64,000 bases of DNA from Patescibacteria group bacterium UBA926 (GCA_002293685.1 DBDS01000006.1:180909-244908), one strand, 5' to 3'. Shown: positions 2,108 through 59,172, counted from the first letter of the stretch. Program-made: numbers and translations. Notes: generated from the sequence alone by a model not told the origin.

Positions 2108-5107
2108 ATGTCAACTCTTCTCGAAAATTTAAATAAAGAGCAGCTCGAGGCGGTCACCCATAAGGATGGTCCGCTTTTGATTATTGCTGGTGCGGGTACT
2201 GGAAAGACCACGGTCATCACGCGTCGGATTGCATACATTCTCGAGCAAGAACTGGCTAAGCCTGAGGAAATTCTTGCTCTAACTTTTACTGATAAAGCGG
2301 CAGGTGAAATGGAAGAACGAGTCGATCAGTTACTCCCGCTAGGTAGTTATGATTTATGGATTTCGACATTCCATAGTTTTTGCGAACGAATTCTAAAACA
2401 ACATGGCTTACATATCGGTTTACCTAACGACTTTAAATTATTAGATAAGACCAAACAGTGGGTTTTTCTGCACAACAATTTTTCTAAATTTGAACTGGAT
2501 TACTACAAACCACTGGGCAATCCAAATAAGTTTATTGATGCGCTGATAGATCATTTTTCAAAGTGTAAAGACGAACTAATTACTCCTGAAGATTACGCAC
2601 TCCATGCAAAAAAACTTCTTGAAAAGAAAAACCCAGACGAAGACGAACAAATGGAAGCGGCTCGGGTTAACGAAATTGCAAAAGCATACCAAACTTATCA
2701 GCAGCTTATGCTTGATAACGGGTATTTGGATTTCGCCGACTTAATTTGGTACACAATTGAATTACTAAAACGTCGTCCAAACATTCGCAAACTGTACCAA
2801 CAGCAGTTTAAGTTTGTGATGGTTGATGAATTTCAAGATACAAACCTTGCACAGTACGAATTGATTAAGTTACTTACTGATAGTGTCATCCTGAGCACAG
2901 CGAAGGATCCCAAAAGTGATTCTTCGGCTTCGCCTCAGAATGACGTCAAACGAAAATCAGTGAAAGATATTGGTCCCAATTTAGTAGTAGTAGGCGACGA
3001 CGACCAGTCAATTTATAAATTCCGCGGTGCTTCTGTTTCGAATATACTCAAGCTCAAAACTGACTATCCAAGCCTAAAAGAACTAACTCTAATCGATAAT
3101 TACAGAAGCAGTCAGCCAATCTTGGACTTGGCTTATAACTTTATTCAAGCTAATAATCCAAATCGTCTCGAACCGAAGTTGGGGATAAATAAACGCTTAA
3201 AAGGTCATAATAAAGCCAAAAGTACTATCACAGTAATTGAAGGGAAAGATTTAAACGAGGAGCTGAACTTAGTTGTTGATAAAATTTTAGACCTCAAAGA
3301 TGCTCATCCAAACTCAAGCTGGAATGATTTTGCAATTCTCATTCGCGCTAACAACACAGCAGGTGAAGTAATTCCTGTCCTCGAAGCTAAACAAATTCCA
3401 TACAGCTTCGTTGCCAACAAAGGCTTGTATAAAAAGCCACTTATTGCGGATATAATTTCTTATTTAAAATTGCTCGATAATTACCACGAATCGGACGCAC
3501 TTTATAGAGTTCTAAATTTCCCCAAATTTAAGTTACCCGCGCTCGAACTAGCTCACTTAACACAATTTACCAAACGTAAAGCTCACTCACTTTATCAAGC
3601 TATGCACGAACAGGAAGCCCTTGCTGAACTTACTGAAGATTCGAGAAACATAATAGGACTGTTACTCAAATTTCTAGAGGAGCATGCTAAATTATCCACC
3701 GAAAAATCCGCAATTGAATTTTTCGTGCAGATGGTTTCTGACTTAGGAATTGACCAAATACTCATCAAAGAAACTTTAGAAAATGCTCAAAATCGAGAAA
3801 TGCTTGAACAGTTCTACAAACGTATCGAAACTTACACACAAGAAAATGATGATAGAACCATGAGAGGTTTCATGAATTACCTCAAGCTCGAGCAAAATGC
3901 AGGGGAAGAGGGTACAATCAAATTCGATCCGAATAGTGGTCCCGAATCACTCAAAATAATGACAATTCATAGCGCTAAAGGCTTAGAATTCGAATACGTA
4001 TTTTTGGTTAGTATGGTTGACCAAAAATTTCCTTCGCGGTCACATAAAGATGCCATAGAAATCCCTGAACCATTAATCAAAGATATATTGCCAGAAGGTG
4101 ACTTTCATCTTCAGGAAGAACGAAGATTATTTTACGTTGCGGTGACGCGTGCCAAAACTCACTTGTATCTTTCTTGGGCATTGGATTATGGCGGAGCTCG
4201 TTCAAAGAAACCATCTCTGTTCTTAACTGAGACTGGTTTGGTGCCTACTGAAAACGCCCACAAAGCGACGGGTAAGGTTGTATTTACTAAATCAAAGACT
4301 AAAGCCAAGCAAGTTGTCTACAAACAATTGCCAGACAAATTTTCGTTTAGTCAGCTGTCCACATTCCAAAAGTGCCCGCTCGAATACAAATATGCTTATT
4401 ATCTAAGACTACCTATGCCGGGCAGCCATTATCTTAGTTTTGGCTCAACCATACACGCAGTTCTGGAAAGATATCTGCAAGCTTACCAATTTAGCCTCGA
4501 AACCTCTAAATTAGAAATTGCAGAACTGAAAACTGATAGAAAATTACCTCCACAAAACTTATTAAATGATTTATTTGAATCTGAATGGATTGATGATTGG
4601 TATAAAAGTCATGAACAAAAAGAGCAATATCGAGCTCGGGGTTTAAGTATTCTGAAAACTTTTTACAAAGCAACTTCGGAGAATATTCCGAAACCAAAAC
4701 TCATCGAACAACCATTTTCATTAAAACTAGGGAACAAGCAACAATACTTATTTAATGGAAAAATAGACCGTGCTGATTCTATGGATTCAGGGTTAATGAT
4801 TATTGATTATAAAACTTCTGAAAAAGTTCCATCCCGCACAGACACTAATGATGTGAATCAGCTACGAATTTACCAGTTGGCCTGTGAAGAATTCTTTCAT
4901 GAAAAGGTTGCAGGATTACAATATTGGTACCTTGTGCCAAACGAAACAGTGGCGGTTAAACTAGCAACACCTGAAGAACTTCAAAAATTAAAGCAAAGTT
5001 TAACTGATACAATAGAACAAATCAGAGACACTGTAAAATACGACCGATTTGCAGAGCTTCATAAGAAATCCAAAAAGCATGATTGTAATTACCTAGATTT
5101 GATATAA
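2108..5107 (+). CDS. UvrD/PcrA-like ATP-dependent DNA helicase fused to C-terminal PD-(D/E)XK (RecB/AddB-like) nuclease domain
   Basis: Walker A GAGTGKTT, motif II DEFQD, motif III VGDDDQSIYKFRGA, motif VI VAVTRAK; C-terminal DYKTS nuclease core with Cys residues. Confidence 0.8.
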   Translation: MSTLLENLNKEQLEAVTHKDGPLLIIAGAGTGKTTVITRRIAYILEQELAKPEEILALTFTDKAAGEMEERVDQLLPLGSYDLWISTFHSFCERILKQHGLHIGLPNDFKLLDKTKQWVFLHNNFSKFELDYYKPLGNPNKFIDALIDHFSKCKDELITPEDYALHAKKLLEKKNPDEDEQMEAARVNEIAKAYQTYQQLMLDNGYLDFADLIWYTIELLKRRPNIRKLYQQQFKFVMVDEFQDTNLAQYELIKLLTDSVILSTAKDPKSDSSASPQNDVKRKSVKDIGPNLVVVGDDDQSIYKFRGASVSNILKLKTDYPSLKELTLIDNYRSSQPILDLAYNFIQANNPNRLEPKLGINKRLKGHNKAKSTITVIEGKDLNEELNLVVDKILDLKDAHPNSSWNDFAILIRANNTAGEVIPVLEAKQIPYSFVANKGLYKKPLIADIISYLKLLDNYHESDALYRVLNFPKFKLPALELAHLTQFTKRKAHSLYQAMHEQEALAELTEDSRNIIGLLLKFLEEHAKLSTEKSAIEFFVQMVSDLGIDQILIKETLENAQNREMLEQFYKRIETYTQENDDRTMRGFMNYLKLEQNAGEEGTIKFDPNSGPESLKIMTIHSAKGLEFEYVFLVSMVDQKFPSRSHKDAIEIPEPLIKDILPEGDFHLQEERRLFYVAVTRAKTHLYLSWALDYGGARSKKPSLFLTETGLVPTENAHKATGKVVFTKSKTKAKQVVYKQLPDKFSFSQLSTFQKCPLEYKYAYYLRLPMPGSHYLSFGSTIHAVLERYLQAYQFSLETSKLEIAELKTDRKLPPQNLLNDLFESEWIDDWYKSHEQKEQYRARGLSILKTFYKATSENIPKPKLIEQPFSLKLGNKQQYLFNGKIDRADSMDSGLMIIDYKTSEKVPSRTDTNDVNQLRIYQLACEEFFHEKVAGLQYWYLVPNETVAVKLATPEELQKLKQSLTDTIEQIRDTVKYDRFAELHKKSKKHDCNYLDLI
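2885..2944. repeat. GC-rich palindromic repeat unit pair (GTCATCCTGAGC..GAAGGATC / GATTCTTCGG..CAGAATGAC) inserted in-frame in helicase CDS
   Basis: 60 nt = 20 codons; the two arms are an imperfect inverted repeat, separated by 7 nt; same family as intergenic copies. Confidence 0.6.
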
Positions 5108-10455: not shown

Positions 10456-12600
<2,145 letters not shown>

Positions 12601-13444: not shown

Positions 13445-13990
13445 ATGAGTAAACAGCAAGTAACGGGTGAGCGTCATTGGTACGTTCTTCATACATATAG
13501 TGGTTATGAAGATAGCGTGGCGATCAACCTTAAACAGCGTATCGAAAACTTAAACATGCAGGACAAAATCTTCGACGCGATTGTACCGAAAGAAAAGAAG
13601 ATTAAAATCCGCGATGGAAAACGTTCAACTGTTGAAGAGAAAATCTTCCCAGGTTACGTGCTCGTCAACATGATCGTAACCGACGACTCTTGGTATGTTG
13701 TTCGTAACACACCAAACGTAACAGGTTTCGTAGGAAGCGGAACTATTCCAACTCCTGTGTCAGAAGAAGAATGGTCATTCCTTAACAAGCGCATGGGCGC
13801 TGATGAACCAAAGTTCAAAGTCGACTTCGAAGTTGGCGAACTCGTTCAGATTACCGACGGTCCTTTCAAGGACTATGAAGGTAAGATTGGTGAAATCGAC
13901 CAAGCTAAAGGTAAAGTAAAAGTATTCGTAACTATTTTCGGTCGCGAAACTCCTGTCGAACTAGATTTCTTACAAGTTAAAAAAGTTTAA
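13445..13990 (+). CDS. nusG: transcription termination/antitermination factor NusG
   Basis: NGN domain WYVLHTYSGYE and KOW GELVQITDGPFKDYEGKI. Confidence 0.85.
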   Translation: MSKQQVTGERHWYVLHTYSGYEDSVAINLKQRIENLNMQDKIFDAIVPKEKKIKIRDGKRSTVEEKIFPGYVLVNMIVTDDSWYVVRNTPNVTGFVGSGTIPTPVSEEEWSFLNKRMGADEPKFKVDFEVGELVQITDGPFKDYEGKIGEIDQAKGKVKVFVTIFGRETPVELDFLQVKKV

Positions 13991-14037: not shown

Positions 14038-14104
14038 GTCATTCTGACCCCGCACTTGATGCGGGGGAAGAATCCCATAGATCCTTCACTGCGTTCAGGG
14101 TGAC
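14038..14104. repeat. hairpin repeat, GTCATYCTGA...GAAGRATC family
   Basis: gtcattctgaccccgca..gcgggggaagaatc + gatccttcactgcgttcagggtgac. Confidence 0.55.
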
Positions 14105-14178: not shown

Positions 14179-14604
14179 ATGGCAAAAAAAGTCAAATCAA
14201 TGGTGAAGCTTCAGCTTCCCGCTGGTAAAGCAACTCCAGCACCTCCTGTAGGTACTGCACTTGGACCGCATGGTATCAACATCGCGGACTTTACCAAAGC
14301 ATTCAACGAGCAAACCGCTCCAATGGGCGACACAATTGTTCCAGTTGAAATGACTATCTATGAAGATCGGTCATTCACATTTATTCTAAAAACTCCTCCG
14401 GCATCTGTACTTGTCCGCAAGGCAGCTGGTCTGGCTAAAGGATCGAGCAATCCTCTTACAACCAAAGTAGGAAAGATTACATCGGCTCAACTCCGTGAAA
14501 TCGCTGAGACCAAGATGCCTGATCTTAACGCTGTAGACATAGAAGCCGCTGAACAGATTATTCGTGGAACAGCGAGAAGCATGGGTATCGAAATTAAGGA
14601 TTAG
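14179..14604 (+). CDS. rplK: 50S ribosomal protein L11
   Basis: [14 protein letters not shown], classic L11. Confidence 0.9.
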
Positions 14605-23121: not shown

Positions 23122-23165
23122 GTCATCCCGGCAGCCACAAGCGAAGCGCGGGCTAGCCGGGATCC
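23122..23165. repeat. repeat GTCATCCCGGCAGCCACAAG...GCGGGCTAGCCGGGATC, copy 2
   Basis: near-identical to 15110-15163; upstream of rplI. Confidence 0.6.
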
Positions 23166-29765: not shown

Positions 29766-30007
29766 CCTACGTAGTAAAGATCTAAATTGATTCTTTGCTA
29801 CTTTTTTTATATGACGACCGTCAATCAAATAACAAGTATCCTTAAGTGGAGAGTGTATAATAATCAGAAGTAGAATTATATGTAGGTCAGGGCAATATAA
29901 TGAAAAGAGATAGAGAATAACGCAAAATTCAAATCATACTACGGACATTGAACAATATACATAGGGGAGCATGTGTTTTGAGATTAACACCGTGTCGCAC
30001 AATGTAT

Positions 30008-30155
30008 GTTCTACGACATGCACATGCATGTCGTAGAACATCCGTCATATTTTGCGACAAATTTTTTGTCGCAAAATATGACAATCATCGCGCCGCTCAA
30101 TTTCATGACTATCACTTCCACCGTCTATGCATCAGGAAATAAATTCCTGATGCAT
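30008..30155. repeat. three consecutive perfect inverted repeats (13-bp, 15-bp and 12-bp stems) in a convergent intergenic region
   Basis: gttctacgacatg/catgtcgtagaac; atattttgcgacaaa/tttgtcgcaaaatat; atgcatcaggaa/ttcctgatgcat. Confidence 0.7.
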
Positions 30156-35140: not shown

Positions 35141-35269
35141 CTCGGACCGAGCGAAGTCCACCAAAATCTCGTTTAGATTTTGGGCGTACGGAGCGAGAAT
35201 GAGTTAAAAGTATCCCCAGAAGCCCGAAGGGCTATCCGGGGTCTAGATCCCGAGGCCCCACCAGGGATT
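35141..35269. repeat. repeat cluster: core D copy (cgaagtccaccaaaatctcgtttagattttgggcg) followed by family C copy 2
   Basis: sequence similarity to 43117-43172 and 1220-1277. Confidence 0.5.
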
Positions 35270-36849: not shown

Positions 36850-36940
36850 AACTAAAATATACTATATTTATGCGGATTTTTCAAGGAATTTTTGTCATTC
36901 CTAAAAAGTATTCCTGGACGGCTGAAGTGTTTCAAGGTAA

Positions 36941-37007
36941 GCATTCCCGGAAGCCCAAAGGGCTATCCGGGATCTGTGGTTGAGACCCCGGCCTTCGTCG
37001 GGGATAC
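36941..37007. repeat. repeat family C, copy 3
   Basis: tcccggaagcccaaagggctatccgggatctg..gaccccggccttcgtcggggatac. Confidence 0.55.
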
Positions 37008-43109: not shown

Positions 43110-43212
43110 GTCATTCTGAACGAAGTCCTTCTAAATCTTGTAGAGATTTTGTGCGGACTTAGTGAAGAATCTCAACATAGATCCTTCGGTTGCTTCGCTC
43201 TCTCAGGATGAC
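43110..43212. repeat. composite MITE-like element (GTCATTCTGA arm + CGAAGTCC..AAATCTTGTAGAGATTT core + GATCC..CAGGATGAC arm)
   Basis: inverted terminal arms and internal hairpin; core shared with 35141-35203 and 58945-58995. Confidence 0.55.
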
Positions 43213-58916: not shown

Positions 58917-59026
58917 GATCCCCTCTTCTCCTCGCTTCGTCAACACAAAATCTCTACAAGATTTAGACGGACTTCGCTCTCAGACCAGAGATGACATCAG
59001 AGATCCTTCGCTACGCTCAGGATGAC
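58917..59026. repeat. composite MITE-like element, inverted copy of the 43110-43212 type
   Basis: cacaaaatctctacaagatttag is reverse complement of core at 43127-43149; ends atgtcatcctgagcgtagcgaaggatc (rc). Confidence 0.55.
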
Positions 59027-59093: not shown

Positions 59094-59172
59094 CACCTCG
59101 TTGCAGAACTCATGGATCCCCGGTCGGTCGCTTCGCGACCACCGAGGATGACATCTGTACGAGGTGATAGTT
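59094..59172 (-). terminator. long hairpin terminator of hup with repeat unit in the loop
   Basis: atcacctcg...cgaggtgat outer stem, T-run on minus strand. Confidence 0.45.
59115..59152. repeat. hairpin repeat unit embedded in the loop of the hup terminator hairpin
   Basis: gatccccggtcggtcgcttcgcgaccaccgaggatgac. Confidence 0.5.

Follow-up and report, generated by a model that had tools for sequence, protein, structure and literature searches.

A REP-like inverted dimer in frame within a UvrD/PcrA-like helicase gene of a Patescibacteria genome

Repetitive extragenic palindromic (REP) sequences have been divided into two superfamilies, GTAG-tagged and CGTC-tagged (Di Nocera, De Gregorio, Rocco 2013, BMC Genomics 14:522; PMC3733652). 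In the CGTC superfamily the tag is often TGTC or CCTC, stems of 8-9 bp nearly always open with complementary A and T, loops are 4-5 nt long, and a 3-nt unpaired tail has the consensus CCA; the units occur mainly as dimers with a variable spacer, and a transposase is not associated with them (PMC3733652). These repeats are mostly intergenic. The intragenic copies are mainly dimers, account for 20-30 residues, and are notably frequent in the genes of UvrABC, UvrD/Rep helicases, RecBCD and DNA polymerase I, a repair gene sometimes being the sole tagged gene of a genome (PMC3733652). CGTC-1 is the dRS3 repeat of Neisseria, CGTC-1 and CGTC-4 are RPE-6 and RPE-4 of Rickettsia conorii, and CGTC repeats were reported in 5 phyla, the candidate phyla radiation (CPR) not being among them (PMC3733652). 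The element described here lies at 2885-2944 of a 64,000-nt stretch of DNA from Patescibacteria group bacterium UBA926 (GCA_002293685.1 DBDS01000006.1:180909-244908), the whole of which is called the window below, within the gene of a UvrD/PcrA-like helicase. Loci in other sequences are given as L numbers and helicase proteins as P numbers.

It is very probable that an inverted REP-type dimer was inserted in frame into a loop of this helicase and kept as a tolerated, translated passenger, the unit having spread in trans as a single-stranded DNA hairpin. Events of this sort have been described before, in Rickettsia as well as in other bacteria; the present case is a new example in a new host phylum, not a new principle. 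The parts of the element and of its host gene are as follows.

2885..2944, plus strand: whole inverted dimer, 60 nt, translating to VILSTAKDPKSDSSASPQND; missing at empty-site orthologs, e.g. L004 10790-10807
2884..2909, plus strand: left REP-like unit with the tag T-GTC, the loop ACA and a stem ATCCTGAGC/GCGAAGGAT that includes two G.A mismatches
2910..2917, no strand assigned: spacer CCAAAAGT, 8 nt, loop of the long hairpin (from sequence and fold)
2918..2945, minus strand: right REP-like unit, 27-nt variant, C-GTCATTCTGAGGCGAAGCCGAAGAATC on the minus strand, CGTC tag, GCGAAGC mini-hairpin core
2945..2971, plus strand: additional 27 nt, VKRKSVKDI, present in the window and, 67% identical, in L001; not in L004
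2108..5107, plus strand: host gene, 999 aa, SF1 UvrD/PcrA-like helicase with C-terminal PD-(D/E)XK nuclease, ORF (open reading frame) intact
2825..2842, plus strand: helicase motif II, DEFQDT, residues 240-245, upstream of the insert; D240-N246 invariant in the alignment
2993..3007, plus strand: helicase motif III core, GDDDQ, residues 296-300, downstream of the insert; G296-S301 invariant

The segment 2885-2944 reads GTCATCCTGAGCACAGCGAAGGATC-CCAAAAGT-GATTCTTCGGCTTCGCCTCAGAATGAC, exactly as an earlier note on this DNA had given it, and consists of two inverted REP-like units, one TGTC-tagged and one CGTC-tagged, with the 8-nt spacer between them. T2884 precedes the left unit and completes its TGTC, while G2945 on the plus strand precedes the right unit and gives CGTC on the minus strand. 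The left unit (2885-2909) has no mismatch to the consensus GTCATYCTGAGCNNAGCGAAGRATC (nhmmer E = 3.5e-9), carries the tail CCC-A, and forms a small hairpin alone when folded as DNA, with 7 Watson-Crick pairs and 2 G.A pairs in the 9 positions of ATCCTGAGC x GCGAAGGAT. Support for the right unit comes from a pattern match, an nhmmer match at 2944-2918 and the DNA fold. Its centre is 2 nt longer than in the canonical unit, and these 2 extra bases shift the frame off the TGA of ...TCAGAATGAC, so that no stop is formed. Folded as RNA, the 60-mer becomes one long hairpin of -26.3 kcal/mol (z = -3.7; 1 of 200 shuffles equal); the DNA fold gives -10.6 kcal/mol (z = -2.8). The element had been called GC-rich, and it is richer than its surroundings (~50% G+C against 38-40%) but not strongly GC-rich. 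No intrinsic terminator was found in 2700-3150, where the sequence after the hairpin, GTCAAACG, has no T run. The whole window gave no Rfam match at gathering thresholds (ribozyme, intron, sRNA); at E <= 10 the window element matched only SmY and RybB, both sub-threshold, and the canonical dimer of L056 gave only generic long-hairpin matches, mostly to miRNA-precursor models. A likeness by eye to the hammerhead core (CUGA...GAA) was rejected, the U7-G8-A9 positions being missing, and Rfam agrees.

With CGTC/TGTC REPs the element shares the TGTC and CGTC tags of its units, a 9-position stem starting A-T, T-A, a short tail, the inverted dimer arrangement, the lack of a linked transposase, and the intragenic position in a UvrD-type gene. 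It differs from them in that the loop of the window subfamily is of a 3-nt GNA type set in a GCGNAGC mini-hairpin (4-5 nt in the described families), two G.A mismatches interrupt the stem, CTN mostly replaces CCA in the tail, and the host belongs to the CPR; moreover, the subfamily CTGAGCGNAGCGAAG is not listed in the supplement of PMC3733652.

The host protein is an intact helicase. Pfam assigns UvrD-helicase to residues 8-321 (1e-79), UvrD_C to 328-691 (6e-54) and PDDEXK_1 to 745-978 (8e-29), and structures of PcrA, UvrD and Rep head the PDB search (PcrA 1pjr, E = 1e-93); both the N- and C-terminal UvrD domains, motifs I-VI and the C-terminal PDDEXK_1 are present. The claim of an in-frame addition of 20 codons between motifs II and III holds, since the 60 nt encode VILSTAKDPKSDSSASPQND and ORF 2108-5107 is intact; in the protein, the insert is flanked by DEFQDT and by VVVGDDDQSIYKFRGA. 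The nearest database relatives are labelled Candidatus Doudnabacteria or Patescibacteria by their sources, and the gene order RmuC, NYN, PIN, helicase, VTT, later PheS and GyrB, is kept in relatives.

The linker between motifs II and III (from ...AQYELIKLL to VVVGDDDQ) has a modal length of 7 residues, seen in 48 of 119 orthologs, and reads LLTGDGNNLVVVGDDDQ in the nearest outgroup clade (~75% identical, 977 aa). The DNA of L004 at 10790-10807 represents the empty site, relative to which the window has 87 nt more, that is, the 60-nt dimer and 27 nt. The 60-nt palindrome announced earlier is therefore present, but the lineage-specific insert is 87 nt (29 codons, 2885-2971). The 27 nt at 2945-2971 may be part of the originally inserted DNA or of an older expansion. 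Alignment of the orthologs, which had been suggested as a check, confines the insert to the window clade (P0001, P0123 and P0003, with a remnant in P0002); distant orthologs have no homologous peptide at this position, but either no insert or different palindromes. In the neighbor-joining (NJ) tree, (P0002,(P0003,(P0001,P0123))) is nested within the clade with 7-residue linkers, and thus one gain in the common ancestor is indicated. The dimer and the 27 nt entered after the split from the 7-residue-linker clade, in the common ancestor that the window organism shares with the two nearest relatives known.

The later history differs between these relatives. The ortholog in L001 (82% aa identity) has its insert at the same codon with the same length of 87 nt, and its palindrome is decayed: the insert is 65% identical to that of the window, the left arm departs from the consensus at 7 positions, that of the window at none, and the linker segment (a few flanking codons included) folds with -17.9 kcal/mol against -28.6. 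The ortholog in L002 (84% identity) retains a shortened remnant, CTGAGC...CTCAGGAT, of +57 nt. In one metagenome-assembled genome (MAG) of the window organism's species, the upstream region of rplV runs directly into the part of the helicase gene that starts at the element (L130 4064-4160; GCA_003446815.1, DMCB01000095.1). The junction falls within the first bases of the element head (GTTATCCTGAGC...) and yields a truncated 762-aa 'hypothetical protein', HAG27691.1; this joint is either an assembly chimera at a repeat or a real recombination between copies.

At the protein level, the proposal that the insert is a surface loop is supported by the AlphaFold model (mean pLDDT, the model's confidence score, 80), in which residues 260-287 are coil with pLDDT < 50 between helix 247-257 and strand 291-297, and by the alignment to PcrA, where residues 259-289 stand opposite just 2 residues. 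The combination described for palindromes of the Rickettsia type is found here, namely an in-frame insert, all helicase motifs intact, and a fold-compatible position in a disordered loop. Identity between the window and L001 at the three codon positions is 0.84/0.91/0.48 over the whole gene and 0.66/0.62/0.69 in the insert. The insert therefore lacks the codon-position pattern of conservation, which indicates that its peptide is not under purifying selection. On the structure model, it would be a tolerated, hydrophilic, disordered surface loop of 29 residues, a passenger and probably not a functional module.

The same linker has been altered repeatedly in other members of the helicase family. 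Its length ranges from 0 to 57 residues, and expanded linkers of 14-57 residues occur in 38 of the 119 orthologs. Parsimony on the NJ tree requires at least 22 state changes from a short-linker root (a Fitch minimum over the 119 orthologs). In the orthologs whose DNA was read (L005, L006, L007, L008 and L129), the expansions are in-frame palindromes:

7676-7819 of L006: linker palindrome, GTCATCCCGA...CGGAATGAC
10784-10912 of L007: linker palindrome, GTCATTCCGG...GGGATGAC
1174-1311 of L008: linker palindrome, CGTCATTCTGAGG...GCGATGACG, in another reading frame
10838-10954 of L129: linker palindrome of the CTGAGCGAAGCGAAGAATC subfamily common to L008, read as HSERSEES
10787-10867 of L005: linker palindrome, an unrelated GGGTGAGGG palindrome

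Several of these independent expansions are GTCAT...ATGAC palindromes read in other frames. Two more loops carry palindromes, at P0011 position 181 (L006 and L008) and position 345 (L007). Two helicase sites are thus occupied in each of L006 and L007, and the helicase gene of L008 holds one family twice. The six indel hot spots of the helicase family all fall in coil regions of the structure model.

Translated palindromes are also seen in other housekeeping genes of Doudnabacteria relatives. In L129, atpG (960-1085) encodes an ATP synthase gamma subunit with a 42-residue in-frame insert of GC-rich hairpins (-51.5 kcal/mol over 126 nt), and in L008 the aspartyl-tRNA synthetase gene aspS carries a smaller in-frame hairpin insert (~11200-11247). 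Dimers lie directly upstream of pheS and gyrB (L008 5880-6002; L002 17613-17704); the gene call for the PheS of L008 reaches ~31 residues into the repeat, probably through a mis-called start codon. L005 20484-20555 (GTCATTCCCGCGAAGGCGGGAATCC) matches exactly, and L006 7363-7428 nearly, ATTCCC-N8-GGGAAT, which we take to be the dRS3 core; judged by that consensus, CGTC-1-type units appear to occur in CPR genomes as well.

Outside the CPR, a Bacteroidales MAG (L060, 1615-2997) encodes an NtrC-type sigma-54 activator (receiver, AAA+, lid and a Fis-type helix-turn-helix, HTH). A complete CGTC-tagged dimer stands in frame between the AAA+ lid and the HTH (2764-2838; VILSEAKNL...DSSANGLRMTG), and a decayed single unit lies in the receiver-AAA+ linker (2048-2075). 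In-frame colonisation by this subfamily thus extends beyond the CPR. Other long ORFs containing the arm among 120 listed loci were mostly spurious in high-GC DNA or lay before the true start (L080 and L081), and only L060 was convincing.

The family is not confined to one lineage, the 25-nt arm being found in many phyla. The arm GTCATYCTGAGCNNAGCGAAGRATC was found on at least 120 contigs of a species-representative genome collection (L009-L128), covering more than 15 phyla, and on at least 120 IMG/VR viral contigs (including L131-L210). The statements that follow on hosts and on unit structure refer to the matches listed, the statistics being those of 153 arms and 54 dimers from the genome-collection scan. 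The hosts comprise Acidobacteriota, Chloroflexota, Nitrospirota, Bacteroidota, Clostridia, Planctomycetota, Verrucomicrobiota, Omnitrophota, Gemmatimonadota, Saccharibacteria, Gracilibacteria, Desulfovibrio and Coxiellaceae, and the arm is almost invariant across them.

A typical element has the order arm, T, variable spacer, inverse arm, A. The base before the arm is T in 126/153 arms and C in 19/153, and the tail in other phyla is mostly C-T-N, with T after GRATC in 120/153. Positions 6 (Y) and 22 (R), the third stem pair, are Watson-Crick partners (C-G or T-A) in 148/153 arms. A partner arm was found within 170 nt by a strict pattern for 54/153 arms, at a median spacer of 34 nt, and 15 of these 54 dimers join a C-G unit to a T-A unit, as does the helicase copy. 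Such heterodimers keep the pairing within units and break the pairing between them, which indicates that the conserved structure is the small hairpin of the unit and not the long one. The apex GC-GNA-GC, with its 3-nt GNA loop (5 nt if the closing C-G pair is counted in the loop), is found in 137/153 arms, the left unit of the window having ACA. The GCGNAGC core equals a DNA mini-hairpin of extraordinary stability, that of Hirao and colleagues (PMC13037366), and the same apex is found on several enterobacterial REPs (PMC2817692, table). The total length of the 54 dimers shows no bias toward multiples of three (16/20/18 for the three remainders), so that the in-frame, stop-free genic copies are explained as a survivor effect.

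On the 5' side of many arms (in L041, L042, L044, L057, L094, L101, L118, L026, L014 and L127) stands a partial duplication in tandem, X-GTCATCCTGAGC-X-GTCATCCTGAGCG..., with X denoting 7-10 nt of local sequence; the arrangement resembles the footprint of an insertion or copying mechanism. A mirror-image duplication may follow window position 43212 (GGATGAC-N21-GGGATGAC). Target-site duplications were not found in other copies, whose flanks tend to extend the palindrome as T...A. Annotated phages and plasmids yielded nothing at E <= 0.01 when a canonical dimer was compared to them by BLASTN; at these database sizes a 25-nt exact match is borderline, and the result therefore carries little weight.

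It is speculative, and on balance unlikely, that the REP unit GTCATYCTGAGCGNAGCGAAGRATC, almost fixed in more than 15 phyla and many viral contigs, points to an unrecognised agent that crosses phyla and keeps the sequence constant, and that, in the CPR, repeated insertion and decay of such units are a main source of loop expansions in housekeeping proteins, with the hits on repair helicases reflecting targeting or selection beyond tolerance. If this were true, candidate agents would be a phage-borne or widely transferred enzyme of single-stranded DNA, or a universal host protein.

Among other described systems, Rickettsia palindromic elements (RPEs) had been proposed as the analogy. The proposal is supported and can be sharpened: the element behaves as RPEs do, it is built as a REP dimer, and RPE-4 and RPE-6 belong to the CGTC superfamily (PMC3733652). 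RPEs (Ogata et al. 2000, Science 290:347, in the summary of PMC10969869) are likewise in-frame palindromes in genes of functional proteins, translated and lodged in surface loops that the fold can accommodate, in small host-dependent genomes, and with no obvious transposase. The RPE-1 type measures ~100-150 bp and is restricted to Rickettsia, whereas the window element has 60 nt and an arm found in many phyla; nearly half of the copies of some Rickettsia families lie within genes, compared to 1 of 6 loci here. The element would be tied to the RPE families only through the CGTC tag classification of PMC3733652.

REPINs and BIMEs, composite elements built of inverted REPs (Bertels and Rainey 2011, PMC3116915; Nunvar et al. 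2010, PMC2817692), are similar in that two inverted REPs and a spacer form one long hairpin, a conserved 5' head stands beside an imperfect palindrome, and action as single-stranded DNA is presumed. The head of the present arms, (T/C)GTC(AT), is not GTAG or GTGG, and in this respect the element falls outside the REPIN/RAYT systems, RAYT being the REP-associated tyrosine transposase. No RAYT gene (Y1 HUH transposase) was seen in the 64 kb, and CGTC REPs are reported without one (PMC3733652). RAYT-associated REPs differ by species (PMC2817692), whereas the present arm is nearly identical across phyla. The MITEs (miniature transposable elements with inverted repeats) that fuse in frame, such as ERIC, Correia/NEMIS and pneumococcal BOX (PMC10969869), are also small and non-autonomous, with inverted ends, and are sometimes intragenic and translated. 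They differ from the element in that it has no target-site duplication and no parent insertion sequence, and its 'terminal repeats' are whole self-folding REP units. Literature searches found no report of REP-type repeats in Doudnabacteria, nothing relevant on MITEs or palindromic elements in CPR, and only chance primer matches for the arm sequence.

The favoured explanation, a REP-type dimer carried as a passenger, is as follows. Each unit has a short T/C-GTC tag and a 9-position stem opening A-T, T-A, capped by a tiny loop of the GNA type and followed by a short tail; it would act as a single-stranded DNA hairpin and would be spread by an enzyme acting in trans. The dimer with the 27 nt entered the motif II-III loop, leaving the gene intact, with an insert 3n long and stop-free. 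Two sister lineages show the insert in decay, whereas in the window copy the canonical state would be kept by gene conversion from other copies or by a nucleotide-level constraint. The linker and two other loops have been struck independently in other Doudnabacteria.

Several points weigh against this explanation. No direct repeat that would mark a target-site duplication was found around 2885-2944 or 2885-2971 in comparison with the empty site, and the dimer leaves the 27 nt at 2945-2971 without explanation. No mobilising enzyme was recognised, in that the ~4 kb beside the arm gave no recurrent candidate family at 120 listed loci; ORFs of at least 100 aa were clustered and the families recognised by eye, and the recurring neighbours were only common housekeeping families (SDR, histidine kinases, ABC ATPases and similar). 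The search for an enzyme and for further copies in the organism itself spans 64 kb of a genome of ~0.85 Mb. The 3-nt loop, the CTN tail and the absence of the subfamily from the tables of PMC3733652 mean that membership in the CGTC superfamily rests on anatomy and not on homology. Translation of the insert is itself presumed. Finally, the 0 mismatches in the window against 7 in the ortholog are an asymmetry that would not be expected of a purely neutral passenger; given a canonical ancestor and equal rates, its chance by hand arithmetic is (1/2)^7, ~0.008. This suggests gene conversion from other copies, re-insertion, or a constraint at the nucleotide level.

The alternative that fares best concerns the history only. 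A recent renewal of the 60-nt palindrome, by gene conversion or by a second insertion into the remains, is a real possibility that falls well short of an even chance. It would account for 0 versus 7 mismatches against a background of saturated synonymous divergence, and the genome holds many near-identical units as possible donors; the joining of unrelated DNA at the element head in L130 also implies that recombination, or the assembler, treats copies as interchangeable. The equal 87-nt length and the same 27-nt tail in the window and L001 argue instead for one event followed by evolution in place, and the 64 kb searched yielded no donor that combines the rare ACA loop with a right unit of 27 nt.

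It is improbable that the element has been exapted, its hairpin or peptide having gained a role as a ribosome pause between subdomains, a site for RNase control of dosage, or an activity-modulating loop. That the window copy is unchanged at all 23 specified positions, against 7 changes in L001, and that its hairpin is strong (-26.3 kcal/mol as RNA) would be consistent with such a role, as would the 65% identity of the insert between genomes, compared to 48-52% at third codon positions. REPs recur in repair genes (PMC3733652) and the helicase is the only tagged gene in the window; an activity-modulating loop would, in addition, fit the speculation on mutator effects of REPs in repair genes (PMC3733652). 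Against this, the missing codon-position pattern implies that the peptide is not selected, and gene conversion explains the canonical state equally well. The decay of the palindrome in L001 (-17.9 versus -28.6 kcal/mol) and the deletion of half of it in L002 indicate that close relatives manage without it. The insert is missing from most orthologs, its loop is disordered according to the structure prediction, and no terminator-like T run is present.

Two further alternatives have only a minute probability. The first is an assembly artefact, in which the assembler spliced the palindrome into the helicase contig by collapsing repeats. Repeats of this family do break or chimerise assemblies, as the rplV-helicase joint of L130 and the start of P0124 just past the element exemplify; NCBI, JGI, ENA and Logan together have the identical insert and protein on 8 contigs, and a second strain has them on a contig of 851 kb, which excludes such an origin, and a diverged ortholog from an independent JGI sample has its copy at the same codon with the frame intact.

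The second is an intervening sequence that is removed, whether as a mini-intron, a protein-splicing element or a translational bypass, so that the mature helicase would be without the insert. CPR bacteria are known for insertions in their rRNA genes, and the insert is a stable hairpin; it has no Rfam match to an intron or ribozyme at gathering thresholds or at E <= 10, no intein-like features, and a length of only 20-29 residues. In addition, the inserts read as DNA in intact genes are all 3n long and stop-free, while the dimers of the genome scan have no 3n bias. This points to a filter which removal at the RNA level would not need, with the caveat that a protein database takes in intact ORFs only. 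Chance or convergence, by which a variable low-complexity linker merely looks palindromic, draws on the 0 to 57 residues seen among orthologs and on the many long versions with no recognisable repeat, but is refuted by a match to 21 fixed and 2 two-fold degenerate positions (expectation ~1e-8 in 64 kb by hand arithmetic; matched by no shuffle), by the second inverted unit, by the hairpin z of -3.7 and by the same units in intergenic DNA, so that its probability is practically nil.

Further copies within the window provide the immediate context of the dimer. The arms recur there as intergenic copies, in agreement with the earlier search proposal, and the family members are as follows.

14038..14104, plus strand: family dimer, left unit with nested hairpin CCCCGCACTTGATGCGGGG; intergenic, between ORFs 13445-13990 and 14179-14604
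43110..43212, plus strand: family dimer, left unit with 44-nt nested palindromic module; intergenic, between convergent ORFs
58917..59026, minus strand: family member, canonical unit 59002-59026 followed by a direct second unit with a nested module of the 43110-43212 type; intergenic
23122..23164, plus strand: single unit of a sister subfamily, GTCATCCCGG...CCGGGATC; intergenic
59115..59152, minus strand: single unit of a sister subfamily, GTCATCCTCGG...CCGGGGATC; intergenic

The left 25-mer is found again at 59002-59026(-) with 2 mismatches, where 0 are expected by chance, and for the generic unit GTCATYCY...RGRATC the window has 8 occurrences where chance would give 0.17. A hidden Markov model built from the 153 arms of other phyla finds 2884-2910, 2944-2918, 14037/14105, 43108/43214 and 59027-59000. 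The ends said to be shared with 14038-14104, 43110-43212 and 58917-59026 are therefore real, all three loci having been recovered by a model from unrelated organisms. As to the likeness claimed for 10456-10512, the 13-mer GGCTTCGCCTCAG is indeed common to the element and 10479-10491 (0.04 expected), but the locus is otherwise a different palindrome. One of the six family loci in the window, the helicase copy, is intragenic and the other five are intergenic; sliding minimum-free-energy and pattern scans found no further intragenic copies in the window, having replaced a sliding G+C scan that was unspecific and missed even the helicase element.

Several other palindromes were observed in the window. 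A nested palindromic module of ~45-50 nt (GAGCGAAGTCC...AAATCT..AGATTT...GGACTT) occupies the position of the REP-unit loop at 43120-43165 and 58929-58979 and stands alone at 35149-35197; the nested hairpin at 14048-14066 is unlike it. In Acidobacteriota, an outer palindrome (ACAGGCTGCGGAAAAAC...) encloses the dimers in turn. It looks as if palindromes insert into one another's loops. A second family of intergenic repeats (...ATCCCCAGAAGCCCGAAGGGCTATCCGGGGTC...) lies at 1211-1258, 35205-35252 and 36939-36975, with hairpins of -28 to -37 kcal/mol per 70 nt. The strongest hairpin of the window, at 29991-30060 (-38.3 kcal/mol), contains a near-perfect 17-bp palindrome, ATGTTCTACGACATGCA/TGCATGTCGTAGAACAT, and is intergenic, at a switch of gene orientation from mostly plus to mostly minus and at a change of GC skew; it could be a terminus-type or recombination site.

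For annotation, the translated arms VILSEAKDL, HSERSEES, ILRFAQDD and SLRMT mark repeat DNA and not homology, and repeats of this family also produce assembly chimeras. The matters most worth following are the repeated colonisation of the same loops and the spread of the 25-nt arm across phyla. In Doudnabacteria, within the CPR (Patescibacteria), the helicase insert is a clean case of selfish palindromic DNA inside an essential-type gene, for which the full series of empty site, fresh copy, decayed copy and half-deleted remnant is preserved. It extends the published pattern of REPs in repair genes of the UvrD/RecB type and quantifies it for one linker and two more loops. The expansions in 38 of 119 orthologs, with at least 22 changes, suggest that insertion of a palindrome followed by its decay is an ordinary route to disordered linkers in these proteins.

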